A stretch of DNA of 64,000 nucleotides from an uncultured delta proteobacterium (GCA_963789265.1 CAWBKB010000003.1:1-64000), one strand, 5' to 3'. Shown: positions 12,433-58,438, numbered from the stretch's first letter. The notes: a model not told the origin generated them from the letters alone. Made by a program: numbers and translations.

Positions 12433-12450
12433 AAGAAAGGAAGGCAGATT

Positions 12451-16271: not shown

Positions 16272-16326
16272 AGATCCTCGGGAGGAGAAAGCTCCCCAGA
16301 ATCGGTGAAATTAACCCGTTGAAAAG

Positions 16327-16351
16327 AAAACGGGGGCAAAACGGGGGCAAA
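16327..16351 (+). promoter_or_regulatory. Tandem direct repeat, putative integrase arm-type binding sites
   Basis: AAAACGGGGGC x2 between the integrase stop and the tRNA. Confidence 0.55.
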
Positions 16352-16416
16352 CTCAAAGAGAACGAAAAACAGGGCATCAACTATTAGAGATAACGCCCTG
16401 CAATTACATGCTTTAG

Positions 16417-16493
<77 letters not shown>

Positions 16494-16520
16494 GCAGATG
16501 GCTGGCGGATCTGCTGCGTC

Positions 16521-16595
16521 TGGTAGGCGGAACAGGATTTGAACCTGTGACCCCCGGCTTGTAAGGCCGGTGCTCTCCCGCTGAGCTACCCGCCC
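16521..16595 (-). tRNA. tRNA-Val(TAC)
   Basis: GGGCGGGTAGCTCAGCGGGAGAGCACCGGCCT-TAC-AAGCCGGGGGTCACAGGTTCAAATCCTGTTCCGCCTACCA. Confidence 0.98.
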
Positions 16596-27669: not shown

Positions 27670-27853
27670 GTCAGTTATCTCGCTCGCCGATCGGTCGCCG
27701 CGTAAGCATGAAATCCTGCGGTGACACTTCGTGAGCCTGTCTTTCCGCCGAAAACTTGTCTTACAGCCGTACGCCCGCCGGTTCGTGCCGTTTCAGATCT
27801 TCCGCATTGCTCGGAAGCAGGCGGTTCGATTAATTTCCCAGCGCATAGCGCTC

Positions 27854-29300
27854 TCAAAAAAGCGGCTTTACCGATTCCGTCGCTAAATTGAGATAAGTTG
27901 TCGGGAAGATCCCTATGTAGAGCACAACAGTCGTCGCAACGGTTAGCGCAAGGACCATGGCCGGGCCGAACTGAAGCTTTGTAGGTGCGGTCTCGGGGGA
28001 TTCCATGTACATTTTCATGATCACTCTAAAATAGTAGAACACCGACACGGCACTTGTGAGCACACCTATGATAACGAGCCATATATATCCGGAATTTATC
28101 GCGGCGCCGAAGATGGTGAATTTCGCAACAAATCCTGCCGTGGGGGGGATACCGGCCAAAGAAAAGAGAAAGATCGACATGACCAGCGCCAGCAGTGGAT
28201 GGACTTTTGCCAAGCCCGCGGTAATCCTCGATCATGACATTGGCCTCGCCTTTTCTGCCGACCAAAGCCACTACTCCGAAAGCTCCCACGTTGGTGAAAG
28301 TGTACACCAACAGGTAATAGAGCATGCCTGCTGTTCCGGCCACTGTTCCAGCCACCATTCCGACGAGGATATAGCCTGCGTGGGCAATACTCGAATAAGC
28401 GAGCATCCTTTTGATGTTTTCCTGCATAAGTGCCGCTACGTTGCCAAGAATCATTGTCAGCACTGCAAGAGCCCAGAGTATGTGCGTCCAGTCGACTTGC
28501 AAGGCGCTCAGCGATTCAAAGAATACTCGCGCGAATGCTGCAAACGCAGCAGCCTTGACTCCCACGGACATGAACCCCGTGAAAGGAGTGGGCGCGCCCT
28601 CATACACGTCGGGTGTCCACATGTGGAAGGGGACCGCAGCCACCTTGAAGGCAAAACCGACCAGCAAAAGGCCCATGCCGACAACGGCCATCCGGCTGAT
28701 CTGGCCGGAGTGAAAATACTTCATGAGAGCCGGTAAACTCAGAGACCCTGCGGCGCCGTACATCAAGGCGGCGCCATAAAGGAAGATAGCACTGGAAAAT
28801 GCTCCCAATACTATATACTTGAGGGCCGCTTCTTTGGACTTCAAATTCACGGGCAAAATTCCGGACAATATGTAAATGGAGATGGACAGGGTCTCCAAAC
28901 CCACGAATATGGTGAGGATGTGGTTTCCCGATACCATAAACATCATGCCTATTGCTGCGAATAGGAGCAGCACAAAGTACTCGTAAAACTCCAGGCCGTC
29001 ATCCGTCAAATAGCGTACAGAAGTCAGAACCGTCAGCCCCGCTGCAATAAGAATGAGGAGGTTGAAGAACCAGGAATATGGGTCCAATGAGATCAATCCT
29101 GAAAAAGCGGGCTTGTTCAACGCTCTCAATGGAGAGTTCGCCACAATTGCTATCAGAATGCCAACCAGGCTTAGGATTGCCGATACTGCGACCACCCCTT
29201 TGCGAAGGTACAATCCCACTATCATAACAACCAGGCCGGCAAGGCCCAAAACAACCGCCGGCAGGATGCCTCCAAGATTAACGTCGGGTATTGACATCAT
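27854..29300 (-). CDS. nuoN: NADH-quinone oxidoreductase subunit N, frameshift near 28215
   Basis: EAALKY, FKVAAVPFHMWTPDVYEGAP, KRMLAYSSIAHAGY and SLAGIPPTAGF. Confidence 0.95.
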
Positions 29301-29325
29301 CCCGATTGCTCCTAGTCCTTCTAAA

Positions 29326-30933
29326 TCAACGATCGAGGCCGCGCGCCTGCGCTGAAGACGTAAGCATGTTTTCAGTGCCGAGGTTCCTCGATGCCATTTT
29401 TGCTTTCTCCATGTCTATGACCGCCGCTTTCTTGTTCTCCACCTGTTGGATGAAGTTCTTCACCGACGGCTCTATAGGCCGGAGAAAGGTGTTGGGGTAA
29501 ATACCGATCCACACCACGAAAACAAGGATGGGTAACAGGACGATAACTTCTCGAGCGCTGAGGTCCTTCAATCCAAGGTTCTTGGGATTGGTGACCTGGC
29601 CGAACATTACTCTCTGGAACATCCAGAGCATATAGACAGCGGCAAATATAACGCCGGACGCTGCAATGACAGCGTACCACGGATGAACCTTAAACGTTCC
29701 CAGAAGAATCAAGAATTCTCCTACAAACCCGTTCAGCCCCGGCAACCCGATGGACGAAAGCGTGAAGATCATGAAAAAGACTGCAAATATGGGCATGACC
29801 TTGGACAGGCCGCCGAATTCCGAAATAATGCGAGTATGCCTTCTTTCATAGATCATTCCGACGATAAGGAACAGGGCGCCTGTGCTCAGCCCGTGGTTTA
29901 TCATCTGGATAATGCTGCCCTCCAAGCCCTGGACGCTCAAAGCAAACATACCGAGCATCACGAACCCGAGGTGGCTCACGCTGGAGAATGCCACAAGCCT
30001 CTTTACGTCAACCTGGACCATTGCGACCCAGGCCCCATAAATGATACCGATCACGGCAAGCAAGGATATCCACCACGTAGCATCCATTGCAGCATTGGGG
30101 AACAGGGGGATAGCAAATCTGATGAAGCCATAAGTTCCCATTTTCAAGAGCACCGCGGCCAGCACCACGCTGCCGACGGTCGGGGCTTCGGTATGCGCAT
30201 CGGGCAACCATGTGTGGAAGGGGAACATGGGGACCTTGATGGCAAAAGCGAGGAAAAAGGCGAGAAACATCCAAAATTGTGCGTGCAGCGGAACGGGAAA
30301 GTCGTAGAGCTTCAGGAGATCGAAAGTGTAAACACCGGTGGCCTTGCCCGCCATGAAATAAAGAGCCAGAATAGCGACAAGCATCAGCAGGCTGCCCACC
30401 ATAGTGTATAGAACAAACTTGATAGCCGCATAGAGCCTTCGGGCGGGGTTTCCCCAGACACCGATCAGGAGGTACATAGGGATCAGCATGACTTCCCAAA
30501 AGACATAAAAGAGAAACAGGTCCAGCGAGACAAACACACCTATCATCCCCACCTGAAGGAACAATAGACTGATCAGAAACTCTTTGACTCTTACCTTTAT
30601 GTCCTTCCAGGACGCCAAGACCACTAGGGGACCCAACAGAGTTGTCAGCAGCACCAAGAAAAGGCTGATTCCGTCTATTCCGATCTTATAGGAAATGCCC
30701 CAGTCGCGGACCCAGACATGTTGCTCGACGAGTTGCATACCAGCCATGGACGGATCGAACAAAGAGTACGCAAAAAGGCTCATCACGAAATCGACGAGCA
30801 TGAAAACCAACGCGACCGATCTGAGAAGTTCGTGGGACTTCCTATTAAGAAATAGCAAGACCAGTACACCCACAAATGGGACGAATGTGATCGAAGTCAG
30901 GATGGGGAAGGAAACTTGCTCCATGAACGACAT
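29326..30933 (-). CDS. nuoM: NADH-quinone oxidoreductase subunit M
   Basis: [34 protein letters not shown] and GFVGEF. Confidence 0.97.
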
Positions 30934-30944
30934 TCCTCCGTGTC

Positions 30945-32867
30945 CTATCTCAGGACGAGATAACCTATTACCACCACGGCTCCTACGAGAATTGAAAGGG
31001 CGTAATCCTTGACAAGGCCGGTCTCGATCTCCCGTAGATAAGCGCCTCCACCTCGAACTAAGCGAGCCACGCCGTTAACGATTCCGTCAATGACCGCATC
31101 GTCAAAACCTTTCCAAAGCAGCCGTGAAAAGCTCACGATAGAGTTGACGAAGAGGAAATCGTACAACTCGTCTATCCAATACTTGTTGTACACAAGCCTG
31201 TGCAACCCGCTGAAGCGTTTGACCATTCTGTCCGCAAGAGAAGGCTCGATGAGGTACATTCGACGTGCCAGAATAAGGCCGGCTAAGGCTATGGCGAGCG
31301 CCACCCCCATAAGAACTAACTCCATGGTTACAGGGGAGTGCTCCAGATGGTGAGCCCTATTCAGGATTGTCTGGGCCGGGGCAAATACAGGTGCCAGAAA
31401 ATTCCCGAAACGCTGCCCACCTTCCCAGACAGGAACTCCTATGAATCCTCCCACAAGTGATAGAAAGGCCAGGATCATGAGAGGAATCGTCATAATAGGC
31501 GGGGATTCATGCAAATGGTGCGCGGTCTCGGGATCCACCCTCGATTTTCCCCAGAAAGTCATGCACATCGACCGGAACATATAGAAAGAGGTCATCAGGG
31601 CAGCTACAGCCCCAATAATCCAGAAGCCGACATGCCGATGCAGCGAGTAAAGAAGGATTTCGTCTTTGCTGAAGAAACCTGCGAACGGAACGATGCCGGC
31701 TATGGCCAGAGTACCGAAAAGATAAGTCCAGTGCGTGTGCGGCAATTGCCTTCGGAGGCCGCCCATCTTGCGCATATCCAATTCTCCGGACATGGCATGC
31801 ATGACGCTGCCCGCGGCAAGAAACAAGAGGGCTTTGAAGAATGCGTGGGTCATGAGATGAAAGATGCCCGAGGCAAATGCTCCCACGCCGCACGCCATGA
31901 ACATGTATCCCAATTGGCTGATAGTAGAATAGGCCAGCACGCGCTTGATGTCGAATTGAGTCATGCCTATGGTAGCTGCATAGAATGCCGTAGCCCCTCC
32001 GACGATCGCCACTACTGTCATAGAGGTTGGCGCCAGGGCGAACAACACGCTGCAACGAGCCACCATATAGACGCCCGCGGTCACCATGGTTGCAGCATGG
32101 ATTAAGGCACTAACCGGTGTCGGACCTTCCATCGCGTCGGGAAGCCACGTGTACAGAGGTATTTGCGCGGACTTTCCGGTAGCTCCGACGAAGAGCAATA
32201 ATGTGATGAGTGTTGCCAAAGTCCCGCCCGCGGCGAGTTTCTCCGGAGCAGCGGCAAAGACTTGGGTAAAGTTGAAGGTACCGAAAGTTACAAAAATGAG
32301 GAACATTCCAATGAGAAACCCAAAATCTCCTACCCGGTTTACGACAAACGCTTTCTTACCCGCGTCCGAAGCGGACTGCTTCTCATAGTAATAGCCGATC
32401 AAAAGATACGAGCAGAGACCGACCCCTTCCCAGCCCACGAACATCAAGAGGAAGTTGTTGGCAGTCACAAGGATCAGCATATTGAAGACAAAGAGATTCA
32501 GGTAAGCGAAAAAGCGGCGGAAACCTATCTCTCCGTGCATATATCCAATTGAATAGATGTGGATAATGCACCCCACGCCGCTTACCACCATCATCATCAC
32601 CATACTGAGCGGGTCAACGAGAAAACCTATGGGAACGGTCAAATTGCCCGACAACATCCACGTGTACATTATCTTCTGGAACGATCGAGATGCAGGAGGT
32701 GTCCCGAGAAGCTCAAGAAATATCAGCAGAGCCACAACAAAGGAAGCGCCCACCGAAACGGCCCCAATCCAACCTATGGCCTTCTCTGAAAAGCGTTTTC
32801 CTATAAGCCCGTTGATCAGGAATCCCAGCAGAGGAAACGAGGGTATTAGCCAGACCAGATCAGTCAT
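30945..32867 (-). CDS. nuoL: NADH-quinone oxidoreductase subunit L
   Basis: [33 protein letters not shown] and HAFFKALLF. Confidence 0.97.
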
Positions 32868-33111
32868 TCCAAGCTCCCGATTCGCGTTCGACGATAGAAG
32901 GTTCCGCTTTCACGTAAAGCATCTGACACATCAATCCTTAGTACTCAGTTTCTCAAATTCGGTCACGTATGCCGATTTGCCTAATGCCCGTACCGGAACT
33001 CTCTTCCGGTAGAACCGGCCTCCCCGCGTCCCGCGGGGTGCTTATGATTCGCCGGCAGGGACGCCGGCGCTACTGTGTAAGTGGCACCGTACTTGTGAAA
33101 CGCAGCACCGG

Positions 33112-33414
33112 TTACCATTTCATCAAGTTGATGTCATTGACGTCGACGGTTCCTTTCATCCTGAAGATGGCAACGGCAACGGCCAGTCCTACGGCCACCT
33201 CAGCCGCGGCGATAACCATGACAAACAGGACGAATATCTGCCCTTCGATTGAGCCCAGATAATGGGAGAAGGCCACAAACGTCAGGTTGACAGAGTTCAG
33301 CATCAGTTCCAGAGACATCAGAATGATAATCAGATTTCTACGAAACATCACTCCAATGACTCCCAGGCAGAAAAGAATCGCGGACAAAAACAGATAATGT
33401 TGTAAAGTGACCAT
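33112..33414 (-). CDS. nuoK: NADH-quinone oxidoreductase subunit K
   Basis: [21 protein letters not shown]. Confidence 0.96.
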
Positions 33415-33474
33415 TTGAGAATTCCTGAGAAAGATATAGAGTCTGTACCCGAGGACGAGCTTCTTTCAGTCTCT

Positions 33475-33975
33475 TCAAGACCTCTTCCGTGCCAGGATCA
33501 CCGTGCCGATAATTGCGGCCAGGAGCAAGATCGAGGCTATCTCGAACGGGAGGAGGTACGTGGTGAAGAGTGCCTTGGCAATGATCTGAGTATTGGACAT
33601 TTGGACGGCCTTTTCCGCGGCTGCCTTTCCCGAGGGTACAAAAACTTTCAGAATCGGGACCAGCAGCACCAGCACAACCACGGCCAAAGCAACACCTATC
33701 CACGAACGCAAAGCTCTTGGATCAATAGGCAGCCGCACCTGGTCCAGGTTAAGCAACATGATCACAAAGAGGAAGAGCACCATTACAGCTCCGGCATACA
33801 CGATGAGCTGCACCATGGCCACAAACTCTGCCTGAAGCAGGATGAATAGTCCTGCAAGGCCGATCATCGTTAGGATCATGAAAAGAACATTGTGCATGGG
33901 TCTCCGAAGGAAAACCACAAAGAAGGCTGATGCCACTGTGATGGCGCTTAAGATGTAGAAAATCAGAGCTTCCAT
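33475..33975 (-). CDS. nuoJ: NADH-quinone oxidoreductase subunit J
   Basis: AEFVAMVQLIVYAGAVMVLFLFVIM and YLLPFEIASILLL. Confidence 0.96.
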   Translation of the reverse strand: MEALIFYILSAITVASAFFVVFLRRPMHNVLFMILTMIGLAGLFILLQAEFVAMVQLIVYAGAVMVLFLFVIMLLNLDQVRLPIDPRALRSWIGVALAVVVLVLLVPILKVFVPSGKAAAEKAVQMSNTQIIAKALFTTYLLPFEIASILLLAAIIGTVILARKRS

Positions 33976-34050
33976 GGATGTTCCAAAACCTCCGCCGGTG
34001 AAGTTGGATCTACCGGCAATCACATCTGTTTAGGCTGACACGCCTGTTTT

Positions 34051-34500
34051 TCAGCCCGCCTTCTTCTTGGAGACGTACCTCGGTTCAGGAGGCTCGAGCA
34101 GCATTTCTTTGGTAAAGATGAGATCCTCCCGGCTGTATTCCGACAGCTCGTAAGCTGTGGTCATTTCTATGGCTTCTTTGGGGCAGACTTCCACACAAAA
34201 TCCACAGAATATGCACCGCCCCAGATCGAGGACGTAGCTCTCGGGATATTTTCTGTTATCGGGCTCCGCCGCTGCCTCGATCGTGATGCACTCCGCCGGG
34301 CAGACTGTGGCACAGAGCATGCACGCCACACATCGTATCTTTCCGGAGGGATGTTTGGTCAATACATGGCGGCCTCTCCACCTCGGTGCCACGTTCCATT
34401 TCTCATCCGGATATTGCAGGGTGACCTTCTTGGAGAAAAAGTAACTCAGCGTGAGTTTCAATCCCTGAATCAACGGGAGAATCATCTCGTGCAACCTCAT
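34051..34500 (-). CDS. nuoI: NADH-quinone oxidoreductase subunit I
   Basis: TLQYP, RWRG and two CxxCxxCxxxCP motifs. Confidence 0.96.
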   Translation of the reverse strand: MRLHEMILPLIQGLKLTLSYFFSKKVTLQYPDEKWNVAPRWRGRHVLTKHPSGKIRCVACMLCATVCPAECITIEAAAEPDNRKYPESYVLDLGRCIFCGFCVEVCPKEAIEMTTAYELSEYSREDLIFTKEMLLEPPEPRYVSKKKAG

Positions 34501-34607
34501 CGATTTATCGGGTCTTGAAGGATTCAACTTCAGGGCCTCATTTTCGGATCCGCTTCTTCCACCGACTTGTGCCGGAGCACGGCCTCACTGCACAAAGAGG
34601 CGGACTC

Positions 34608-35642
34608 TCAGTGTGTATACTGGAGCCAGACAGTGTAAATGAACGCAGTTGCCATTACATTGAACAGCCCGGCAGGCAGCAGCACCTTCCATCCAAAGGT
34701 CATTACCCTGTCATAACGAAGTCTCGGATAAGTGCCGCGAATCCAAACGAACACGAACACAAAGAAAAACATTTTAGCCATGAACCAGAAAATGGGGGGC
34801 AGGAATGGACCTTGCCATCCCCCGAAATACAAGGTGGTCATAAGTGCGCTCAAAAAGAGCAAGTGTGCGTATTCGCCCAGGTAAAATAAACCGAACTTCA
34901 TGGAACTATACTCGGTCTGATAACCCGCTACGAGTTCATTTTCACACTCTATGAGGTCAAACGGGGTCCGAGCGATTTCAGCGCTGCCGGCTATCATGAA
35001 CAAGATAAAACCAAGCGGCTGACGGAAGACATACCACTTCAAGATCGTGTCCTGGGCCTGAACGATTTGCACCAGACTGAGTGAACCCGCCAACAGCAGC
35101 ACGCCCACCACGGAAAGGCTGAGTCCTAGTTCGTAACTTATCATCTGAGCACTGGAACGGATTGAACCCAACAGTGAGTATTTGCTGTTTGAAGCCCACC
35201 CGCCGAGCACAACGCCGTAAACGCCCAGCGATGAAATGGCAAAAATATACAGTATCCCTACATTCAGGTCGGAGACTACTCCTTGATTGAGGCCGTACTT
35301 GGAGGCTAGCGGTCCTAGAATGCTTTCCAAGCCCAAGCCTTTGGCAAAGGGGATAACTCCAAAGGGTATCAAAGCGCAGACAACTACGATCAAGGGAGCG
35401 GCGAGGTAGATCATCCTGTTGGCGCCGGATACGGTGATTTCCTCTTTCATGAAGAGCTTGACCCCGTCCGCCAGCGGCTGAAGGAGACCCCAGGGGCCAA
35501 CTCGGTTGGGACCGATCCTAACCTGGATCCAACCGAGGACTTTACGTTCAATCAGCGTCAGGTATGCCACGAAGGTCAAGACTGCTCCGATGACAAGCAG
35601 TACCTTCACGACAACCAGGATGATAGGGAGGGCGGATTCCAT
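34608..35642 (-). CDS. nuoH: NADH-quinone oxidoreductase subunit H
   Basis: ERK..GPNRVG..QPLADGVKL, AQMISYE, RTPFD and PRLRYD. Confidence 0.97.
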   Translation of the reverse strand: MESALPIILVVVKVLLVIGAVLTFVAYLTLIERKVLGWIQVRIGPNRVGPWGLLQPLADGVKLFMKEEITVSGANRMIYLAAPLIVVVCALIPFGVIPFAKGLGLESILGPLASKYGLNQGVVSDLNVGILYIFAISSLGVYGVVLGGWASNSKYSLLGSIRSSAQMISYELGLSLSVVGVLLLAGSLSLVQIVQAQDTILKWYVFRQPLGFILFMIAGSAEIARTPFDLIECENELVAGYQTEYSSMKFGLFYLGEYAHLLFLSALMTTLYFGGWQGPFLPPIFWFMAKMFFFVFVFVWIRGTYPRLRYDRVMTFGWKVLLPAGLFNVMATAFIYTVWLQYTH

Positions 35643-35655
35643 GTACGCAACCTCT

Positions 35656-38300: not shown

Positions 38301-38380
38301 AGAAACTTACTCACAAAAGTGGTTGTGGACGGTTTAAAGCAGCCGGGGCCGAAGCACCCTCGTTTGCATTGAACCGGGAG

Positions 38381-40177: not shown

Positions 40178-40249
40178 TACCGATTCTCCACCGAGTTGCC
40201 TGAAACATATACAGCAACCGAAAAACGTCTCCGATTCATGCTTGTCGCC

Positions 40250-40636
40250 TTAAGTGGCCTGTGTCTCGCTCCCGCGAGCAAGGGCGTAATCCTCAACGGC
40301 CTTGCCTCCAATGACATGCTCGTTGAATATTCGAACGGCCTTCTCTTTGGTGAGGAGGATGTATTTGACCGGCGACTGGTCGGCAACTTCGACAGTTATC
40401 ATCGGCTCTTTGGCGCACAGGCCGGCGCAACCGGAATTGGTCAGAAGAACGTTTGTGATTTCTTTCTGTGCCATGATGTTCCGAAAGGTCGTCAAAATAT
40501 CGCGGGCCCCGGCAGCAATTCCGCACGTCCCCATGTGTACGGTAATTTTTGCCCGGAACTCTCCCTCGCGGAGCACCATTTTGGTTCGTTGCTGCTCTTT
40601 GATCTTCTTGAGGTCCTGTATGGAAATTTTAGCCAT
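40250..40636 (-). CDS. Thioredoxin-like (2Fe-2S) ferredoxin (HndB/HydD-type)
   Basis: ITVHMGTCGIAAGAR..SGCAGLCAKEP..EHVIGG. Confidence 0.9.
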   Translation of the reverse strand: MAKISIQDLKKIKEQQRTKMVLREGEFRAKITVHMGTCGIAAGARDILTTFRNIMAQKEITNVLLTNSGCAGLCAKEPMITVEVADQSPVKYILLTKEKAVRIFNEHVIGGKAVEDYALARGSETQAT

Positions 40637-40704
40637 GATTCTCCCTCCTGGAGGATCAACCGACCTGCTTATCCACGATCCGGCGACGCGTTCACGTCTC
40701 CGGA

Positions 40705-41221
40705 TTATTGATAGCCTTCAAGTATCTTCACCGTGTCTGTCGGATTAATGTTACCGTGGGTATCCTCTCCTATCAGCATGACCGGGGCCAGACCGCAGGC
40801 CCCCAAACACCGTACTGCCTCAAGAGTGAATCTGCCGTCCTCGGAGGTTTCGCCAACATTAATGCCGACCTCTTTTACTATGTTCTCCAGGATCTCTTTC
40901 GAGCCTTTGACATAGCAGGCGGTTCCCAGGCACAGACGGATGGTATGCCTCCCTCTCGGGGTGATAGTAAAGAACGAATAGAAGGTCACAACACCATAAA
41001 TGTGAGATGAAGGAATATGCAAGCCGTCCGCTAACTTTCGCTGGACCTCCATGGGAAGATATCCGTACAAATCCTGAGCCTCTTTGAGAGCAGGGATAAG
41101 ATATCCGGCCCGACCTCCGGTACTTGTCTATGATCCCACCGAGTTTCTCCAGCTCTTCAGGCGGCAGAATCTCAACCTGCGGTTCATCTTTCTTCTTTAG
41201 TATCGAGTCTCGTTCTTGCAC
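40705..41221 (-). CDS. nuoE: NuoE (HydC/HndA-type) [2Fe-2S] subunit, frameshift near 41115
   Basis: YGVVTFYSFF, CLGTAC and CLGACGLAP; GTG start at 41221. Confidence 0.92.
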
Positions 41222-41257
41222 TTTATTTTCGCTCCATAGATATTCGGCCCCCGAACT

Positions 41258-41803
41258 TCACTCGGAAGCGATCTCACGGAGTCCCGAAAGAATATTGTCC
41301 CGGATGAGTCCTATAATCTGGGGGTTGTTAATCGGGATCTCTTCCAGCTCCAAGCGTATCTCCCTTGTATCCAGGGTGTACTCTTTGCCATCTTTCTTAT
41401 GTGTGTAAACCAAATCAACTGCCGGATTGCCCTCAATCAGGGCAAGAAGCGTATCTACCATGTCGCCCATGGGCTTCCGGTCGATATGTTTATGACTCAT
41501 GAAAACCGACACCTTCGTTCCGTGTCCAGGGATGGAATCCACCTTGAGATCGCCCTCGGCTTCTCGTGCGGCCTGTTGAAACAATGACAGCCCGAGTCCC
41601 ACTTTGCGAGTGGTACGCGTCGTGGTGAAAGGATCAAGGACTTTGGCCAAGAATTCCGGGTCCATGCCACGACCGTTATCTTCGATGATTATCGTCAGCC
41701 TGTCGTCTCGCCGATTCTCCTCTATGGTTATGTTGATCAGATCGGCCCCGGCTCTCACCCCGTTTTCGGCCACGTCCAGAATGTGCAGAGAGAGATCCTG
41801 CAT
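41258..41803 (-). CDS. Stand-alone HATPase_c (histidine-kinase-like ATPase)
   Basis: N-box DVAENG, G1 DNGRG, F-box DPF and G2 GLGLS. Confidence 0.9.
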   Translation of the reverse strand: MQDLSLHILDVAENGVRAGADLINITIEENRRDDRLTIIIEDNGRGMDPEFLAKVLDPFTTTRTTRKVGLGLSLFQQAAREAEGDLKVDSIPGHGTKVSVFMSHKHIDRKPMGDMVDTLLALIEGNPAVDLVYTHKKDGKEYTLDTREIRLELEEIPINNPQIIGLIRDNILSGLREIASE

Positions 41804-41842
41804 GCCTAATGTTCAGTATACGGATCGAAATTTCTGAAAGCG

Positions 41843-42661
41843 TTACGGTCCGTCGCCCATTGTTTTCAGTTCCAGTATCCTTCTGCCCCCGCGATTGCCC
41901 AAGGCATTTCTGAACTCGTCAAAACTGGCTTCGGCGAGCATCGCCAAGGTCATCGCGGCACCCACATCTTCGAGGCAATGGGCATCGGACGAAGCGATCA
42001 TCGGGTAATCAGCGCACTGAGGGTATCTTGCCCGGAGCTTCTCGATGCCGGCTCTTTTCGAGATTTCCAGTGCGTCGAGTTGCAGCCCCTCCGGGACAAA
42101 TCCCAATTGGCCGAAGATCCCGAATCCCGCTCTATCCACATGAGATGCGATAGCCAGACCTCGATTATCGTGGACCAAGCGGACGACCTTTTCTGCGCTC
42201 AGAGTCGTGGCCCCTATGAGGAGCCTTTCGTCAAGGTCTTCTACTTGGTCATATTCATCTACTACCGCCTGGCAGCCGAACACGATTTCGTCATTCTGCC
42301 CGAAAAGCCTGGCGTAAACCTCTTCCTGGACGGCTTCGACATCCGAATCGGACGAAAACAGGCCCAAAATGTGAACTTCTTCCGAGGTGGTAATTTCCAT
42401 CCCCGGAAGAACCGTCAACCCGGTCCCTTCTGCTGCCCGCCTGGTGGCGGCCGCATTCCTCGCAGAGTTGTGATCGCAAACAGCGATCATGTCGAGGCTT
42501 TTGTCCAGAGCCGCCCGCACAATAGCCCGCGGTGTCATCTCCGCTATTTCGGTGCAGGGAGACAATACCGTATGAATGTGTAGGTCAAGCTTGTAAAGCT
42601 TAAGATCGACCTGCCAACCTCTTTTGCCTTTGGCCGCAATTCCCGGCTCTTTATCAAACAA
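41843..42661 (-). CDS. PHP-domain metal-dependent phosphoesterase (true start probably about 50 nt downstream)
   Basis: DLHIH, DHN, E..H, SH and SSDAH motifs. Confidence 0.9.
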   Translation of the reverse strand: MFDKEPGIAAKGKRGWQVDLKLYKLDLHIHTVLSPCTEIAEMTPRAIVRAALDKSLDMIAVCDHNSARNAAATRRAAEGTGLTVLPGMEITTSEEVHILGLFSSDSDVEAVQEEVYARLFGQNDEIVFGCQAVVDEYDQVEDLDERLLIGATTLSAEKVVRLVHDNRGLAIASHVDRAGFGIFGQLGFVPEGLQLDALEISKRAGIEKLRARYPQCADYPMIASSDAHCLEDVGAAMTLAMLAEASFDEFRNALGNRGGRRILELKTMGDGP

Positions 42662-42717
42662 GGGCGGGGAAGCCGAGTATTGATTTGCATTCCTGATTCC
42701 ACAGCAATCCTTGCGTC

Positions 42718-43062
42718 TCAGGATATGCGGCGAACCCCCATCTCATATAGTTTGCCTGCCAACTCGTAAGTCGGCATGGAACTTACCAGAATCGGGACAC
42801 CCTGCTCTTCGGCTTTCTTCAGGGTGTCGGGCTCCGGCTCGCGGCCGCCCACAATAACTATCCCTGCCAGGTTGTTCAGGAACGCAACCGCCACGATGTT
42901 CTGATGGAGCTGTAGTGTGATCCAGAGATCACCTTCTCTGGAACCGGCGATCACATCGCTGAGAAGGTCGCTCACATATCCGCCTTCCACAATACGGCCC
43001 ATGTCAAGGCGACCTGTCCTGATTTCCAGCCCCAAAGCATCCGCTACTTCTCCCAGGGTCAT
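42718..43062 (-). CDS. DRTGG-domain protein (HPr kinase N-terminal-like)
   Basis: GGYVSDLLSDV..LWIT..NIVAVA. Confidence 0.85.
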   Translation of the reverse strand: MTLGEVADALGLEIRTGRLDMGRIVEGGYVSDLLSDVIAGSREGDLWITLQLHQNIVAVAFLNNLAGIVIVGGREPEPDTLKKAEEQGVPILVSSMPTYELAGKLYEMGVRRIS

Positions 43063-43084
43063 GAATGGCTCCCCAACCCGTCGG

Positions 43085-44284
43085 CTATCGGTCGACTTCC
43101 GCCAAAACGATATCCACACTGGAGAGTATCGCAATCAAATCGGAAAAAAAGTATCCCTTGCCCATCCGTGGGAGGGATTCAAGATTCACGAACGCAGGTG
43201 CCCGCCATTTGAGTCGATACGGCCTGGGGCCGCCGTCGCTGACTATGTAGCAGCCAAGTTCACCCCGTGGAGATTCAATACATTGGTAAACTTCGCCGAC
43301 AGGCGGCTTCAACCCTTCCACTACGAGCATGAAATGATGGATGAGTGATTCCATCTTGGTGTAAATATCTTCTTGAGGCGGAAAAATCACTCCAGGCTTT
43401 TGCGCCCGCACAGGGCCATAGGGCAGCCTGTCCAAAGTCTGGCGCAGTATGCGATTGCTCTGCCTCATCTCCGCGACCCGGACCAGATATCGTGAGTACA
43501 CGTCGCAGCCGGTCTCGACCGGTACATCGAAGTCGTAATATTCGTACCCACAGTATGGTTCCCGCTTCCTGATGTCCCAGGCCAACCCGGAAGCCCGGAC
43601 CATCGGGCCGCTTGCCCCCAGAGCGATGGCCTCTTCAAGAGGCAGTATCCCGATGCCCTTTGTCCGGTCCATGTAGATAACGTTCTTTGTGAGCAGAGTT
43701 TCGTACTCGTCCACCCTTCGATCGAAGTGCTCGGTGAACGAGCGCAGCCGGTCGACAAATCCTTCTTCCAAATCTCGTATGAGCCCGCCGATCCTCAGAT
43801 AGTTCGGCATGAGGCGGCCACCTGCCGTGAGTTCGAAGAGATTCATAATCTCTTCGCGTTCTCTGAGCATATAGAACATCGGCGTCATTGCGCCGACGTC
43901 GTGCCCATGCGTGCCCAGCCAAAAGAGATGGCTGAAAATGCGGGACAACTCGGCCATCATCACCCGTATGACCTGAGCTCTTTCCGGGACGTCCACGCCG
44001 AGGAGTTTTTCCACAGCCAGGCAATAAGCGAGAGAATTGCTGGATGCTCCCATATAATCGCAACGCTCCGCCAGCGGGATCACCTGGTGGTAGTGTTTGT
44101 TCTCGCAGGTCTTCTCATAACCCCTGTGTAGATATCCCAGGTGCGGCACCACATCTACAACTAGCTCGCCATCGAGCTCGACTACGGCTCGGAACACTCC
44201 GTGAGTGCTGGGATGATGAGGTCCTAGATTTAGTTCCAGGAGTTCGCTACTGAAATTGAGTTTTGGGCTCACTTGTTCGCTCAT
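43085..44284 (-). CDS. nuoD: NADH-quinone oxidoreductase subunit D
   Basis: GPHHPSTHGV, GYLHRG, RCDY, ESPRGE and DIVLAEVDR. No NiFe-binding CxxC pairs. Confidence 0.96.
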   Translation of the reverse strand: MSEQVSPKLNFSSELLELNLGPHHPSTHGVFRAVVELDGELVVDVVPHLGYLHRGYEKTCENKHYHQVIPLAERCDYMGASSNSLAYCLAVEKLLGVDVPERAQVIRVMMAELSRIFSHLFWLGTHGHDVGAMTPMFYMLREREEIMNLFELTAGGRLMPNYLRIGGLIRDLEEGFVDRLRSFTEHFDRRVDEYETLLTKNVIYMDRTKGIGILPLEEAIALGASGPMVRASGLAWDIRKREPYCGYEYYDFDVPVETGCDVYSRYLVRVAEMRQSNRILRQTLDRLPYGPVRAQKPGVIFPPQEDIYTKMESLIHHFMLVVEGLKPPVGEVYQCIESPRGELGCYIVSDGGPRPYRLKWRAPAFVNLESLPRMGKGYFFSDLIAILSSVDIVLAEVDR

Positions 44285-44309
44285 GAGCTGTTTTCCTCGG
44301 GGTCCGCTC

Positions 44310-44807
44310 CTATGCGGGCAAGTCGGGAGTATCTTCTTCGGTTCCGTACAGAGGGAAGTCTTTCCTTAGAGGATGAACGGTCCATCCTTCCGGAAGGAGG
44401 AGCTTCCGTGGATCGGGGTGGTTCTTAAAGGTTATGCCGAACATTTCGGCCGTTTCTCTCTCGTGCCAGTTAGCCGTAGGCCAGATGGGCACCACCGAAT
44501 CAATCGATGGTTCACTTTCAGCCGTATCTTCCAGCAGCGCCTTTATTCGAAATCGGTGATTGTGTTTCAGGGAATGGAGTTGGTAAACAACCTCGAAACG
44601 GGGGGTCTTCGGATACCTGTCCACTGCACCTACAAATGAGAGGAAGTCGAAGGACAGCTCGGGATCTTCTTTCAGATAACGGCAGACATCCAGGATCTTT
44701 TCCATCGTTACCGTCAAGCTGATCTGATCGCGAAATTCGACCGCGGTCTGTATTGTATCCGGTCCAAACTGGGCCAGAACCTTCTCTTTAATGTCTTCCT
44801 GTTTCAT
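44310..44807 (-). CDS. nuoC: NADH-quinone oxidoreductase subunit C
   Basis: [23 protein letters not shown]. Confidence 0.96.
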
Positions 44808-45313
44808 CTAGCGGCTGCCTTGATGCTTGTTACACGGGGATTGTGGATGGACTGCTCCTTCAGGACCTTGGCGTGAAGCTGTAAAATTCCGTCCACCAAT
44901 GCCTCGGGTTTGGGAGGGCAGCCAGGGATGTAGACATCCACCGGGAGGTGGCGGTCGATGCCTTGCACCACGGCGTAATTCTTGTAGATACCGCCGGTAC
45001 ACGCGCAAGCCCCCATGGCAATCACCCAGCGGGGTTCTGCCATTTGCTCATAGATTCTGAGTACCGCGGGGAGCATCTTCTTGGAGGCAGTACCGGAAAC
45101 TATCATCAGATCCGCATGCCGTGGAGAAGGTCGGAACACTTCCATGCCGAACCGGGAGAGATCGTACCGGCTGACAACCGTGGCTATCATCTCGAGAGCG
45201 CAGCATGCTAAGCCGAAACCCAGCGGCCACATGGATGACTTGCGCGCCCAGTTGACGAACCATTCGAGGTTGGTGACGTGAACGGTGTCGTTGAGATGTC
45301 CTTTTATTCCCAT
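44804..45313 (-). CDS. nuoB: NADH-quinone oxidoreductase subunit B
   Basis: [20 protein letters not shown] and IPGCPP; start overlaps the nuoA stop. Confidence 0.96.
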
Positions 45314-45660
45314 TCCAATGCACCTTTTTTCCAAACATAAACGAGGCCCAAGAGGAGAACCACCACGAACACGAACATCTCCGCGAAGCCAAACATCTTC
45401 AACTGGTCGTAAATGGTCGCCCAGGGAAATAGGAAGATCAGTTCGATGTCGAAGACGATGAAGAGCATCCCCATTACAAAGAATCGGACTGAAAATCGTC
45501 GTCTCGCGCTTCCTATGGGATCCATACCGCATTCATACGGCATCAACTTGATCGGTGTAGGGTTTCTCCCGGCCAAAAGCGTGGAAAGCACAATAATAGC
45601 CAGGCCTATGAATGCGGATATCAGCAAAATCACCAGGATGGGAAGGTAGCTGTTGGTCAT
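45304..45660 (-). CDS. nuoA: NADH-quinone oxidoreductase subunit A
   Basis: PYECG, FDIE and KKGALEW. Confidence 0.96.
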
Positions 45661-45812
45661 ACCTCTTCTCCGGCTCCAAGCGCCTGCTTCCTGAAAACAG
45701 GAACCCCGACGCGATATTTATTAGTGACTATGATGGCTGATACGGAGAGGCATCCGATGAAGGGCCTACGTAACCGTAACATGCCCTTGTTACAGCCCGC
45801 CTGGCAAAGTTG

Positions 45813-46775
45813 TCAAGGTTTTTTTCCCGCTCTTCTCGTCGCCCCCGGGAGAGTATCTCCGAAAAGAAAAGCTATGTCAAGCCTGGTTCCGGCTCCGGGT
45901 TCAGACACGAGCCTCATCGTGTCCGAGCATCTTTTAATATTAGCCAAGCCCATGCCGGCACCGAATCCCATGTCTCGAATCCATTCCGGAGCGGTGGAGA
46001 AGCCCGGCTGAAGAACTTGTTGCAGGTTATCTATTCCGGGGCCGTGGTCAACTGCGGACACCATTAGCCGACCCTGACGAATTTCTACAGTTATTTCCCC
46101 GCCCACGTCAGTGTGTATAACGAGATTCATCTCGGCCTCGTATACCGCCACAGCGACTCTTCTCACCAGAGGCGGTAAAAATCCGAGCCGTTGAAGAGAT
46201 TTCTTGATCATGCTGGATGCCTTGCCCGCATTGGCAAAATCTTTGTCATTCACTATGTAACGCAAAGTGACGCTTGTATCGTCGGACTCGATGTCCTCGA
46301 ATATGTGGCTTGCGCGGTATGTTTGCAGCTTCTCGGCTTCCTTCTTCTGAAAGCTCACGTCCATTTCACGCAGAAGCGCCCTAATCACTGTGCCCGTGGT
46401 AAGGATGCCCACCAGTTTCCCGTCTCCGTCCACCACAGGCAATCTCGCGAATCCATGTCCGCCGAGATTGCTCAGGGCCTCCGTCAGGGACGCGTCCTTC
46501 GATACGGTCTTAACCTCCCGCGTCATGTTATCCGCGGCCCGCGTGCTCAGCAGCCCTTTTTCCATCGCGTCGATCACGTCGGTCATGCTCAGGATGCCGA
46601 CGATTCGGTCTCCATCAAGCACCGGCGCACCGGTAATGCGCTTGGCCCGCATCAACTCCTTCACATCGGCCATAGACATGGAGGGGTCGATCACGATGAC
46701 GTTCGGCGCCATGACGCTTTCCACTCTTGTGGTGTAAATCAACTCCTGAACTTTGGTGATTTCCTGGATAGTCAT
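45813..46775 (-). CDS. CBS-pair plus RsbT/RsbW-like Ser/Thr kinase (HATPase) fusion
   Basis: Two CBS domains, then YEAEMN, DHGPGI, GFSTA and GFGAGMGL. Confidence 0.9.
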   Translation of the reverse strand: MTIQEITKVQELIYTTRVESVMAPNVIVIDPSMSMADVKELMRAKRITGAPVLDGDRIVGILSMTDVIDAMEKGLLSTRAADNMTREVKTVSKDASLTEALSNLGGHGFARLPVVDGDGKLVGILTTGTVIRALLREMDVSFQKKEAEKLQTYRASHIFEDIESDDTSVTLRYIVNDKDFANAGKASSMIKKSLQRLGFLPPLVRRVAVAVYEAEMNLVIHTDVGGEITVEIRQGRLMVSAVDHGPGIDNLQQVLQPGFSTAPEWIRDMGFGAGMGLANIKRCSDTMRLVSEPGAGTRLDIAFLFGDTLPGATRRAGKKP

Positions 46776-46776
46776 G

Positions 46777-47148
46777 TCACCACGAGTCGTTTTGTATTTG
46801 TACCTGCCCGAGCCCCGGCAGCCCTGCTTTGAAGAGACGGCCGCAGGCCTCGTACATCGTATAACCTGTGTTGATAATCGTTATATTGGACTCACGCGCC
46901 AGTTCCACAGTTTCGGGAGGCGGAGTCTTGTCCCGCACGAACACGATCACGTTTATGCCCGCCATTTCTGCGGTGCGAACGACTTGGGGGTTGGTCAGAC
47001 CTGTCATGAGCACCATGCCTTCAGTGCCGAACGCGAGAACATCACTCATGAGGTCCGCTGCGCCGCCCCTCGGGACCTCCTCATCCAGACCATGATTTTC
47101 TACGAGGATCCGCCCTGATAGTATCTCCACCAGTTCCCGGATTTTCAT
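46777..47148 (-). CDS. DRTGG-domain protein
   Basis: ADLMSDVLA..TGLTNPQVVRTAEM..YEACGRL. Confidence 0.88.
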   Translation of the reverse strand: MKIRELVEILSGRILVENHGLDEEVPRGGAADLMSDVLAFGTEGMVLMTGLTNPQVVRTAEMAGINVIVFVRDKTPPPETVELARESNITIINTGYTMYEACGRLFKAGLPGLGQVQIQNDSW

Positions 47149-47347
47149 GAACTCTCCAGACCCGGCTATGACGGTCAAGAAAATTATTGGACCACCATCA
47201 TTCTATGTTGTCAAGCTCCAGAGCCTAGACTGGGCGCTTGATTGAGGGGGTTACAGCCACCCTTGCCTTGCCTGGATTCGCAGGTTATACAGGGCCACAG
47301 GTCACTCTTTTCGCAAACACGTTGAAGTTAGGCATTCGGTACGGAAG

Positions 47348-47422
47348 GAGATTGCTTCGCTGCGCTCGCAATGACAGGTGGTGGGAATGTCATTGCGAGG
47401 AGTGAAACGACGAGGCAATCTC
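47348..47422. repeat. Palindromic element (GTCATTGCGAG/GCAATCTC family), copy 1
   Basis: GAGATTGCTTCGCTGCGCTCGCAATGACA .. TGTCATTGCGAGGAGTGAAACGACGAGGCAATCTC. Confidence 0.8.
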
Positions 47423-47521
47423 CACATTGAAAACATGTGACCGAACCTGTGTACATGGCCCTCAAGTCCGGCACCTTGCCTGACTCCGGCAGACCAGTCT
47501 GAAAGAGACGCGCGTAATACG

Positions 47522-57161: not shown

Positions 57162-57177
57162 ACACAGAGGTAAGGGG

Positions 57178-58209: not shown

Positions 58210-58250
58210 GCAGATAGGAGCCACGAAATTCTGGAAGACGAGGGGGTAAA

Positions 58251-58421
58251 ATGGGACGCAAGAAACGCAAGAAGGAACGGCTAAAGCCCATCTCATTTTA
58301 TGGGTACGACGCCAGGGAAGTGAGTAGAGCATACATGCAAATTAGTCCCAAGCGTTTAAGGGAATTGCAACAGGAAGAAAGAGGGCTTGATAAGTTAACT
58401 GATCAGGGTGCCGATAGTTAG
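58251..58421 (+). CDS. Small basic hypothetical protein, 56 aa (not in the ORF track)
   Basis: GAGGGGG RBS, then MGRKKRKKERLKPISFYGYDAREVSRAYMQISP... Confidence 0.5.
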   Translation: MGRKKRKKERLKPISFYGYDAREVSRAYMQISPKRLRELQQEERGLDKLTDQGADS

Positions 58422-58438
58422 GGGGCAGTGAGACTGGG

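Follow-up and report, generated by a model that had tools for sequence, protein, structure and literature searches.

A class of complex I named Nuo-Bfu, with BfuABC genes in the middle of the nuo cluster, has been predicted from genomes (Schut et al. 2022, Front Microbiol 13:946711; PMC9304861), with examples in Deferribacteres, Proteobacteria including Geobacter sulfurreducens, Planctomycetes and Nitrospirae. In the predicted class, BfuB carries extra cluster domains at both its N- and C-terminus, BfuA has five clusters (Type 3) and menaquinone is the presumed third substrate. These features are common to that class and to the operon described here, and they are predictions in both cases. By drawing on NADH together with ferredoxin, a complex I linked to menaquinone could pump its full complement of protons (Schut et al. 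2022). The name Desulfomonile has 0 occurrences in one text supplement of that paper. The initial annotation of our locus had noted that genome surveys predicted Nuo-linked members of this family and knew of none characterised; a full-text literature search on the term “Nuo-Bfu” agrees, returning only the predicting paper and no biochemical characterisation.

We analysed a 64,000-nucleotide stretch of DNA (the window) from an uncultured delta proteobacterium. The host is a relative of sulfate reducers, from soil. One string of 20 genes occupies 27854-47178 on the minus strand, with intergenic gaps of at most 152 nt; all genes below lie on this strand. By Pfam and NCBIfam the order is DRTGG, CBS-HATPase, nuoA-D, DRTGG, PHP, HATPase, nuoE, an HndB/HydD-like gene, a 598-aa nuoF, nuoG and nuoH-N, so that the BfuABC genes sit within a nuo cluster coding the other 11 core subunits (nuoA-D upstream, nuoH-N downstream). 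The initial annotation had this order from nuoA onward; at the 5' end it overlooked two genes, since 45813-47178 holds a DRTGG and a CBS-CBS-HATPase gene and not nuoA, which lies at 45304-45660. Judged by sequence, the operon is a new example of the predicted Nuo-Bfu class (Type 3 Bfu), not a new kind of system. We lean towards the reading that it encodes a membrane-bound, proton-pumping Nuo-Bfu complex I, with a BfuABC-type module in place of the usual one for NADH input, and that this module would work reversibly in confurcation or bifurcation.

The subunit that best identifies the module is NuoF (38381-40177; 598 amino acids). Its Pfam domains are an N-terminal 2Fe-2S_thioredx domain (residues 4-84), the FMN domain, SLBB, NADH_4Fe-4S and a C-terminal 2x[4Fe-4S] domain (546-597), and the motifs DPGAFMDR, GAGAFVCG and GGPSG stand at residues 202, 281 and 400; the length, two extra domains and three motifs first reported for this protein thus all agree with what we find. 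The FMN/NADH domain and the B1 [4Fe-4S] site equivalent to N3 are recognised by PF01512 (161 bits) and PF10589 (105 bits). Full-length PDB matches are to NiFe-HydB (7t2r_B, 810.8 bits), Acetobacterium woodii HydB (7q4v_B, 802.8 bits) and T. kivui HydB (739 bits), while respiratory subunits score lower (Thermus Nqo1, 394.4 bits; E. coli NuoF, 338.3 bits) and the TIGR01959 nuoF model gives 483.9 bits, under its cut-off of 558.65. Among 25 orthologues of 61-96% identity, invariant residues (25/25) include C14, C19, C51 and C55 of the thioredoxin-like domain (PF01257), the N3/B1 cysteines C458, C461, C464 and C504, and the eight cysteines C552-C592 of the C-terminal domain (Fer4 families; B3/B4). 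The stretch H528...C534-x4-C539 is also invariant, and its two cysteines align with cysteines of 7t2r_B and 7q4v_B, an alignment that does not imply ligand identity. In the Bfu family, the B2 site is Zn held by three Cys and one His, and the B5 site, in the thioredoxin-like domain, is [2Fe-2S] or Zn. T. kivui HydABC cannot bifurcate without its B3/B4 domain (PMC11829005). By sequence, NuoF is a full BfuB/HydB.

Does this architecture imply bifurcation? Three motifs, made up of residues near the NADH/FMN site and GGPSG, separate bifurcating from non-bifurcating beta subunits, and cluster counts by themselves do not discriminate bifurcating enzymes (Losey et al. 2020). NuoF is of the bifurcating type at all three, whereas the host's own compact NuoF (424 amino acids) reads EPATFKDR, AGRYICGE and GGAST. 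The Bfu-type architecture is necessary for bifurcation and is not proven to be sufficient. A somewhat unlikely alternative is that the head is Bfu-derived but its donors are uncoupled: NADH would be oxidised as in ordinary complex I, and the extra clusters would be an independent entry for ferredoxin or structural leftovers. Leftovers are hard to reconcile with the finding that all extra-domain cysteines stay invariant across the 25 orthologues down to 61% identity, and the FMN/NADH-site residues are not those of NADH-only enzymes. In addition, the genome encodes a compact NADH-only NuoF as well, which argues that the 598-aa protein has a different job. An ordinary compact-NuoF complex I (about 420-450 amino acids, FMN and N3 only) is ruled out by the length of NuoF and its two extra cluster domains.

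The other parts of the head point the same way. NuoE (40705-41221) is read in two frames in the window, with PF01257 at 150 bits for 40705-41070, and all four C1 [2Fe-2S] cysteines (C-x4-C ... C-x3-C) lie in the window piece. An intact proxy from a relative (L001) shares 95% identity with the 121-residue C-terminal piece in the window; it scores 153.5 bits against HydC (7t2r_C) and 70.6 against Nqo2, and its top PDB matches are HydC subunits. NuoG (35656-38300), likewise in two frames in the window and a single 880-aa ORF in relatives, was identified by Pfam, NCBIfam and PDB searches. Its closest PDB entries are alpha subunits of NAD-dependent formate dehydrogenases (493.8 and 477 bits, against 168.8 for Nqo3). 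Five cluster motifs are present (C34/C45/C48/C64; H96/C100/C103/C109; C148/C151/C154/C158; C188/C191/C194/C198; C224/C227/C231/C258), and by our assignment these correspond in sequence to BfuA clusters A1-A5.

NuoG has lost the active site of its dehydrogenase relatives. Where these have ...CH... and ...R.QNNVQG, NuoG has HAGGFGYRAL and VLGEKANSQG, with Gly-Tyr in place of the catalytic Cys/Sec-His and Gly in place of the active-site Arg; we take these three aligned positions to be the catalytic residues of formate dehydrogenase. An NAD-dependent formate dehydrogenase of the FdsA type is thereby ruled out. Pfam found no H-cluster domain (PF02906 or PF02256) in either NuoG piece and found both in a relative's true HydA (L079), which rules out an [FeFe] hydrogenase of the HydABC or Hnd kind.

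These losses bear on another reading, that E, the HndB-like protein, F and G make up a soluble Bfu-type enzyme of their own, encoded in one operon with a ferredoxin-dependent Nuo of 11 subunits. Nuo complexes of 11 subunits, lacking EFG, are common among anaerobes, and in related lineages a BfuC-HndB-BfuB cassette serves soluble hydrogenases and formate dehydrogenases. However, because NuoG has neither the formate dehydrogenase Cys/His/Arg nor an H-cluster domain, the module would have no soluble third substrate of its own. NuoG also retains the motif for the His-ligated cluster, which in complex I passes electrons on to NuoI, and NuoD and NuoH flank the module in 42 of 51 relatives with enough flanking sequence, across several phyla. 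We therefore consider a separate soluble enzyme very unlikely. For the Nuo-Bfu complex that we favour, we infer that the module associates with the membrane arm, uses ferredoxin and couples its two donors obligatorily.

Between nuoE and nuoF lies a gene for a 128-aa protein of thioredoxin fold (40250-40636), matched best in the PDB by the N-terminal domain of NfnB (9n5u_B, E = 3.4e-13). The name “HndB-like ferredoxin” given to it at first needs correcting, as it has only three conserved cysteines, against the four of a thioredoxin-like [2Fe-2S] ferredoxin. Among 66 sequences, 64-66 keep C38, C70, C74, H34 and E77, its Atlas neighbours are named “2Fe-2S ferredoxin domain” or “NADP oxidoreductase”, and a separate HndB-like gene is found in 41 of 42 Nuo-linked loci. 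The protein is predicted to bind NuoF: modelled docking scores 0.80 against 0.01 for the best of 3 controls. Of 157 solved complexes 116 attain that mark, as do 2 of 215 mismatched pairs, and three runs share at least 95% of contacts with a partner pLDDT of at least 79. No separate HndB/HydD-like chain occurs among the PDB search matches, so a solved structure known to the model is an unlikely source of the score. NuoF, NuoE and this protein are all closest in sequence to subunits of biochemically bifurcating enzymes, as expected for the HydABC/Hnd-type head proposed in the initial annotation.

The Q and P modules are canonical. NuoA (45304-45660; 118 amino acids) gives 114.9 bits with NF005922 (E = 2.7e-33; under the model cut-off of 155). 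NuoB (44804-45316; about 170 amino acids; PF01058; NF005012, 236 bits), starting at Met73 of an ORF at 44804-45532, has its N2 motifs, a 13-residue motif and GCPP, and is 87% identical to its orthologue in the closed family genome (G045). These are followed by nuoC (44310-44807; PF00329, 156.9 bits) and nuoD (43085-44284), which encodes the quinone-site subunit (TIGR01962, 550.6 bits, above the cut-off of 459). NuoD keeps the quinone-site His (HPSTHG at 24) and Tyr (DY at 76) and has no cysteines at the [NiFe] large-subunit positions, just as first noted. Downstream of the module are nuoH (34608-35642; PF00146, 411 bits), nuoI (34051-34527; Fer4 dicluster families, 85% identity to the G045 orthologue), nuoJ (33475-34023; PF00499, 138 bits), nuoK (33112-33414; PF00420, 115 bits), nuoL (30945-32867; 640 amino acids; PF00361, PF00662, PF01010), nuoM (29326-30933; PF00361, PF01059) and nuoN (27854-29300), the last in two frames in the window, as two PF00361 pieces abutting at profile positions 238-240, and a single 488-aa ORF in G045.

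The initial annotation named nuoE, nuoG and nuoN correctly and overlooked that each is broken over two frames in the window. Such breaks are what an operon decaying in its host would show, but we regard decay as scarcely credible. Compared with a same-genus genome, every break is a single-base difference at a short base run. nuoE has a surplus C at 41120 (placed against L001), nuoG lacks one base at about 36545-36548, and nuoN has a surplus base within a run of A at about 28204 (placed against G026). In contigs from two runs the base needed to restore nuoG is present, and these contigs otherwise equal the window except for a single base change at 41004 in X2; this read-derived proof of assembly error concerns the nuoG break, one of the three. 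All three genes are intact in relatives, and G045 has the same gene order with every gene unbroken. The neighbouring FTHFS gene is also in at least four pieces, which fits an error-rich assembly. The frameshifts thus look like assembly errors.

The operon is widely conserved. The synteny search proposed with the initial annotation places the module inside a nuo cluster in the 42 relatives counted above and in G045. An orthologue of the Bfu-type NuoF at 79% identity or more is found in at least 63 of 70 family genomes, compared with just 47 of the 70 for the compact NuoF. In a quick tree search, with SH-aLRT support only and every sequence biochemically uncharacterised, the Nuo-linked BfuBs form one clade (17 rows, SH-aLRT 100) and the window NuoF lies far from compact respiratory NuoF, in line with the phylogeny that had been suggested as a check. 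The same genome has a canonical nuo operon (with the 424-aa NuoF), an Rnf cluster and an Ech/Mbh-like complex, and the host is therefore not dependent on the Bfu-type enzyme for linking ferredoxin, NADH and quinone.

Five further genes travel with the module. DRTGG-domain protein 1 (46777-47178; PF07085, E = 3.1e-6) is the first of the string; a homologue occurs in 37 of the 42 Nuo-linked relatives whose flanks are long enough. A CBS-CBS-HATPase protein (45813-46775; PF00571, 98.6 bits; PF02518; PF13581; 38/42) has a SpoIIAB/RsbW-like ATPase or kinase domain, with the anti-sigma F factor model TIGR01925 matching at 46 bits over residues 204-301. DRTGG-domain protein 2 (42718-43062; PF07085, 31.3 bits; 40/42) probably starts at Met25 of an ORF at 42718-43134, where the G045 alignment begins. 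A PHP-domain phosphoesterase (41843-42661; PF02811, PF13263; 38/42) and a stand-alone HATPase_c protein (41258-41803; 181 amino acids; PF02518, 65.7 bits; 40/42), whose top PDB matches are ATP-binding domains of histidine kinases (E about 1e-6), complete the set. Going by domain content and co-inheritance only, the five most likely form a set of kinase/phosphatase type that senses nucleotides and controls the Bfu module. It is tempting to go further, in a proposal we hold as tentative and quite unlikely: that the principal complex I of Desulfomonilaceae is a 15-subunit machine that both confurcates and bifurcates, with an HndB/HydD-like metal-binding subunit clamped on the thioredoxin-like domain of NuoF and a head switched by this co-inherited set. 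If so, a respiratory complex I would be under post-translational control by a cassette common to soluble bifurcating hydrogenases and formate dehydrogenases. The modelled docking of the HndB-like protein on NuoF is new here, as is the cassette of kinase/phosphatase-like genes that accompanies this lineage of BfuB.

In the Nuo-Bfu complex as we picture it, NuoE would act as BfuC, the 598-aa NuoF as BfuB and the catalytically dead NuoG as BfuA, with the HndB/HydD-like subunit on NuoF. NADH would be oxidised at the NuoF FMN, and reduced ferredoxin would deliver electrons by way of the C-terminal 2x[4Fe-4S] domain and NuoE's mobile cluster. Both streams would merge by confurcation and pass through the NuoG, NuoI and NuoB clusters to menaquinone at NuoD/NuoH, whose reduction would drive proton translocation by NuoL/M/N. 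Run backwards at the expense of proton-motive force, the enzyme would use menaquinol to reduce NAD+ and ferredoxin jointly. From the sequence of NuoF, its module may bifurcate or confurcate; the role in a syntroph or in reverse electron transport suggested in the initial annotation is hypothetical. From established potentials, oxidation of NADH and of ferredoxin should each be exergonic with menaquinone as acceptor, so thermodynamics does not compel coupling unless the load of the pump is taken into account. That either donor alone could reduce menaquinone favours the uncoupled head discussed above, as do the ability of Rnf with canonical Nuo to balance ferredoxin and NADH and the fact that the full-text search found no assay for any Nuo-Bfu member.

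How does the predicted Nuo-Bfu complex compare with known enzymes? All 14 core subunits of canonical complex I (E. coli NuoA-N, Thermus thermophilus Nqo1-14) are also here, and NuoD, NuoB and L/M/N are alike; NuoF, however, has 598 amino acids against 424-445, with two extra cluster domains and bifurcating-type FMN-site motifs, and both NuoE and NuoF resemble subunits of hydrogenases more closely than they do Nqo2 and Nqo1. HydB and HydC of the bifurcating hydrogenases HydABC and NiFe-HydABCSL (7t2r, 7q4v, 8a6t, 7p5h) are matched full-length by NuoF and NuoE at all cluster sites, whereas the operon has no H-cluster or NiFe subunit and its A subunit is NuoG-like, leading into complex I. A. woodii HydABCD has an extra subunit, HydD, of roughly 15 kDa (PMC6288185); our small protein is a putative counterpart of it and of D. 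fructosivorans HndB. FdsABG and FoDH1 (6tg9, 7vw6) are the best structural relatives of NuoG (residues 4-866) and share its five-cluster N-terminal part and molybdopterin fold, but they have catalytic Cys/Sec-His and Arg where NuoG has Gly-Tyr and Gly; FdsB is without a C-terminal ferredoxin domain (PMC11829005). Finally, the Nuo-Bfu of Schut et al. (2022; PMC9304861) is described as a 14-subunit complex (A-N), to which the window adds the HndB/HydD-like gene and the five DRTGG, CBS-HATPase, PHP and HATPase genes.

In Pfam and NCBIfam scans, the operon (27854-47178, minus strand) is a string of 20 genes, all on the minus strand, with intergenic gaps of 152 nt at most. It opens with a DRTGG protein (46777-47178) and a CBS-CBS-HATPase protein (45813-46775), followed by nuoA (45304-45660), nuoB (44804-45316), nuoC (44310-44807) and nuoD (43085-44284). 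Then come a second DRTGG protein (42718-43062), a PHP phosphoesterase (41843-42661), a stand-alone HATPase_c protein (41258-41803), nuoE (40705-41221), a 128 amino acid thioredoxin-fold protein (40250-40636), nuoF (38381-40177; 598 amino acids), nuoG (35656-38300) and nuoH, I, J, K, L, M and N, whose lower coordinates run from 34608 (nuoH) down to 27854 (nuoN). The initial annotation had the nuo order right but missed the first two genes and put nuoA at the position of a DRTGG gene. Judging from its sequence, the operon is very probably a Nuo-Bfu, i.e., a complex I containing a bifurcating-type (Bfu) module in which NuoE, NuoF and NuoG correspond to BfuC, BfuB and BfuA. Consensus scans of 27700-47600 gave no signal for promoters (7 promoter-like sites vs 13.3 expected) or terminators (26 terminator-like sites vs 19.9 expected), and Rfam found only two tRNAs in the whole window (16420-16595), none within the operon. 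A promoter-like TTGACA-17-GATACT (10/12) lies at 45880-45852 (minus strand), inside the 3' end of the CBS-HATPase gene and approximately 190 nt upstream of nuoA; it is only a lead, since the scan total is below the shuffled controls.

Is the operon decaying? In the window nuoE, nuoG and nuoN are each divided between two frames. Set against a same-genus genome, the window carries one additional C in nuoE (41120) and one additional base in an A run of nuoN (approximately 28204), and it lacks one base of a C run in nuoG (approximately 36548). The contigs of two public runs equal the window sequence over the parts they cover, save for the nuoG base and one base change (41004) in one run (X2); both carry the base missing at 36545, which restores nuoG. 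Moreover, the three genes are single ORFs in relatives, and the whole string is intact, its order unchanged, in a closed family genome (G045; 6.5 Mb, two contigs), so that decay is very unlikely. The adjoining formate-tetrahydrofolate ligase gene (24627-26391, minus strand), which points to a Wood-Ljungdahl context, is spread over at least four frames (PF01268 profile positions 2-87, 81-120, 153-185 and 186-556); the assembly is therefore generally rich in indel errors. Because the nuoG base is restored, the assembly is error-rich and the operon is intact in relatives and in the closed genome, we treat it as functional. Selenocysteine as the origin of the nuoG split is ruled out, the split being a frameshift rather than an in-frame TGA. 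At locus L021, from a Desulfomonilaceae MAG, a TGA codon in NuoG (12702-12704; MNL*IRCG vs MNLCIKCG) stands opposite Cys148, the first Cys of a CxxCxxCxxxC cluster motif; sequencing error, strain mutation and selenocysteine are candidate explanations.

The domains of NuoF place it with bifurcating enzymes. Domain calls by Pfam confirm the extra N- and C-terminal domains proposed for it and give the order thioredoxin-like [2Fe-2S], FMN, SLBB, N3-type cluster domain and 2x[4Fe-4S]. In a search of solved structures, NuoF aligns end to end with NiFe-HydB (7t2r_B; 810.8 bits) and with the HydB of A. woodii (7q4v_B; 802.8 bits), T. kivui (8a6t_B; 739 bits) and T. maritima (7p5h_B; 659 bits), all subunits of enzymes shown to bifurcate; the respiratory subunits Thermus Nqo1 and E. 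coli NuoF score 394.4 and 338.3 bits. The available text of PMC9304861 and PMC11829005 defines the Bfu sites as B1, the B2 zinc, B3 and B4 (C-terminal domain), B5 (N-terminal domain) and C1 in BfuC. The cysteines of these sites are all invariant among 25 NuoF orthologues (61-96% identity); for B2 we infer the ligand residues. Three motif criteria separate bifurcating from non-bifurcating proteins in the accessible part of Losey et al. (2020; PMC7311640), and the motifs DPGAFMDR, GAGAFVCG and GGPSG, already picked out in the initial annotation, fall on the bifurcating side in all three. The compact, canonical respiratory NuoF of the same genome (424 amino acids; G000:C3:918896-920167) has the non-bifurcating EPATFKDR, AGRYICGE and GGAST. 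NuoE, represented by its intact orthologue at the same-genus locus L001 (95% identical across the window's C-terminal NuoE piece), has its closest counterpart in HydC of the bifurcating enzymes above (153.5 bits vs 70.6 for Nqo2).

The small protein between NuoE and NuoF had been called an HndB-like ferredoxin. Its match is to the thioredoxin-like domain at the N-terminus of BfuB proteins (NfnB 9n5u_B, E 3.4e-13). The term ferredoxin fits less well: only three cysteines (C38, C70, C74) are conserved (64-66 of 66 sequences, as for H34 and E77), not the four of a [2Fe-2S] site. A 3Cys+Glu Zn site is described for the N-terminal domain of C. saccharolyticus NfnB (available text of PMC11829005), and the conserved residues of the small protein resemble this site more closely than a four-Cys [2Fe-2S] site. 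Its atlas neighbours (score 0.98) are 127 amino acid proteins that bear the automatic names "2Fe-2S ferredoxin domain" or "NADP oxidoreductase". A. woodii HydABCD includes a HydD of approximately 15 kDa, the cofactor of which is not known according to the portion of PMC6288185 available. A complex model of NuoF with the small protein scores 0.80, against 0.01 for the best of three controls; this mark was attained in 116 cases among 157 solved complexes and in two among 215 mismatches. At least 95% of contacts agree between runs, the partner pLDDT is at least 79, and the contacts fall on NuoF residues 4-12, 43, 64-66, 87-90, 128-151 and 259-269. The model, a prediction, supports binding of the small protein to NuoF.

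Where would the electrons go? With the L001 protein as proxy (93% identity), the best solved relatives of NuoG are alpha subunits of NAD-dependent formate dehydrogenases (493.8 and 477 bits, residues 4-866), ahead of mycobacterial NuoG (232.9 bits), Nqo3 (168.8) and E. coli NuoG (143). A formate dehydrogenase, as this ranking and NCBIfam Fdh-alpha matches would have it, is ruled out by missing catalytic residues: the window NuoG has Gly-Tyr in place of the catalytic Cys-His and Gly in place of the active-site Arg, at positions that we take to be those of the catalytic residues. It keeps five cluster motifs, including the His-ligated one, and no H-cluster domain was found in it by Pfam scan. 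Lacking both catalytic residues and an H-cluster, NuoG offers no soluble third substrate for the module. NuoD has the HPSTHG and DY first seen in the initial annotation and no NiFe cysteines, and scores above the NuoD equivalog cut-off; NuoB carries the N2 motifs, and NuoH, J, K, L, M and N give high-scoring matches to their Pfam families. The Q and P modules are ordinary, and the NuoI-NuoB-quinone chain would be the only plausible outlet for the Bfu module. That NuoE, the HndB-like protein, NuoF and NuoG form a separate soluble module is improbable.

We lean, by a little, towards reversible confurcation as the most likely reading: electrons from NADH and reduced ferredoxin would be merged and passed to menaquinone with proton pumping. 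Schut et al. argue, in the available text of PMC9304861, that the energy from NADH to menaquinone is too small for full pumping and that ferredoxin makes up the shortfall. By our own reasoning, if four protons are pumped for each electron pair, this load would bring the effective acceptor potential down to approximately that of the H+/H2 couple, a regime where coupling by Bfu enzymes is known. A head that accepts both donors uncoupled, or NADH only, seems a weaker though real contender.

How widespread is this arrangement? We fetched 80 loci of relatives around NuoF matches, 51 of them with at least 6.5 kb upstream and at least 4.5 kb downstream of the match. NuoD and NuoH homologues flank the module in 42 of the 51, with the accessory cassette (first DRTGG 37, CBS-HATPase 38, second DRTGG 40, PHP 38, HATPase 40) and, in 41, a separate HndB-like gene. 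Among the other nine loci, each accessory gene taken singly occurs in six and the HndB-like gene in eight; the cassette lies upstream of a selenocysteine formate dehydrogenase in L074, L075 and L077 and of an [FeFe] hydrogenase in L079. Searched against the PDB, the CBS-HATPase and HATPase proteins gave generic CBS and histidine-kinase domains only, and the word DRTGG was not found in the papers listed for DRTGG with hydrogenase, PHP and NuoF. From their domains and their co-inheritance with this BfuB lineage, we read the accessory genes as a putative regulatory set of kinase/phosphatase type. Loci L053 (Desantisbacteria), L056 (Marinifilum) and L057 ("bacterium") have nuo clusters in which the NuoE-NuoF-NuoG set occurs twice in succession, with a second NuoF that is 52-54% identical to the window NuoF; L056 and L057 have neither cassette nor separate HndB-like gene.

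The NuoF phylogeny suggested as a check agrees with the Bfu assignment: in a 39-row maximum-likelihood tree from a quick search, without any biochemically characterised sequence, the compact NuoFs lie across a branch of 1.83 changes/site. Its rows are 31 first and three second copies from the 80 loci and five own-genome paralogues, including the window NuoF, and E. coli NuoF; the selection excluded truncated loci, near-duplicates and an RnfC-like paralogue. A single clade (17 rows, SH-aLRT 100) unites the Nuo-linked BfuBs and adjoins a Nitrospirota E-HndB-F-G group, both within a set whose members serve formate dehydrogenases and hydrogenases as well.

Within the family, 69 of 70 genomes have a NuoF match at E 1e-100 or better. 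The synteny sought in Desulfobacterota relatives is there in the 20-gene order of the closed genome. A Bfu-type NuoF orthologue (at least 79% identity) occurs in at least 63 of the 70 genomes among the matches listed (81 further matches); of these 63, eight are incomplete, with seven that stop at a contig end and one that a TAG breaks. The compact NuoF is present in 47 of 70 genomes (24 of 36 high-quality ones) and was not found in genera g2 (eight genomes), g3 (two) and g19 (three). The family has therefore kept the Bfu-type operon more constantly than the canonical one, and for the family as a whole this design represents the conserved complex I; several genera keep it without a compact NuoF. 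Six genomes (G034, G032, G064, G065, G068, G063) have a second full-length Bfu-type NuoF (68-73% identity) besides the orthologue (85-89%).

The window's own genome (6.06 Mb, nine contigs) has a second, canonical nuo operon (G000:C3:908985-923570), whose compact NuoF is 41.7% identical to the Bfu-type core. A NuoF-NuoG fusion there (1363 amino acid frame) is ruled out by a stop at G000:C3:918893-918895. Four further Bfu-type clusters of NuoE-NuoF(-NuoG N-terminal) lie at C1:986509-989199, C1:2297185-2300490, C1:2312604-2317406 and C3:1002586-1005455 of G000, none of the four with the DRTGG/PHP/HATPase cassette; in one, NuoF is fused to a GltD-like pyridine-nucleotide oxidoreductase domain (1054 amino acid frame). 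The genome also has an Rnf cluster (C1:1782448-1787453) and an Ech/Mbh-like complex (C5). Elsewhere in the window, 4286-16595 looks like an integrated mobile element, with a resolvase (12792-13472), a phage-type integrase (15267-16271), the two tRNA genes and large ORFs without Pfam match (4286-6100, 6568-8076). Two DNA methylase-domain genes lie at 47522-49378 and 55863-57161 (both plus strand), and 56000-60000 has a G+C of 0.45 (vs approximately 0.52) and two ORFs without Pfam match (57079-58209, 58439-59971).

If Nuo-Bfu works as predicted, one reversible machine would tie NADH, ferredoxin and menaquinone, the three chief redox pools of an anaerobe, to the proton-motive force, and the energy accounts of sulfate reducers, dehalorespirers and syntrophs would have to change. 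Views on the origin of NADH-dependent complex I from ferredoxin-dependent ancestors would be touched as well, a link argued in the available text of PMC9304861. With Bfu-type and canonical operons in one cell, direct comparison is possible, and the intact operon of the closed genome opens the question to bench work. One member of the family, Desulfomonile tiedjei, is in culture.

The Nuo-linked members from genome surveys to which the initial annotation referred are the Nuo-Bfu of Schut et al. (2022; PMC9304861), defined, in the text available, from 51 sequences in BfuB clades 38 and 39, with co-expression of the Geobacter sulfurreducens cluster cited. A full-text search for "Nuo-Bfu" returned this paper only, and no account of the window operon turned up in searches that paired Desulfomonile with NuoEFG, Nuo or complex I; Desulfomonile may already be within their set. 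Two modest additions to the 2022 prediction, both absent from the available part of that paper, are the HndB-like subunit and the accessory cassette. By sequence, the window operon is a well-supported example of Nuo-Bfu, a known kind of complex I that has so far been predicted only.
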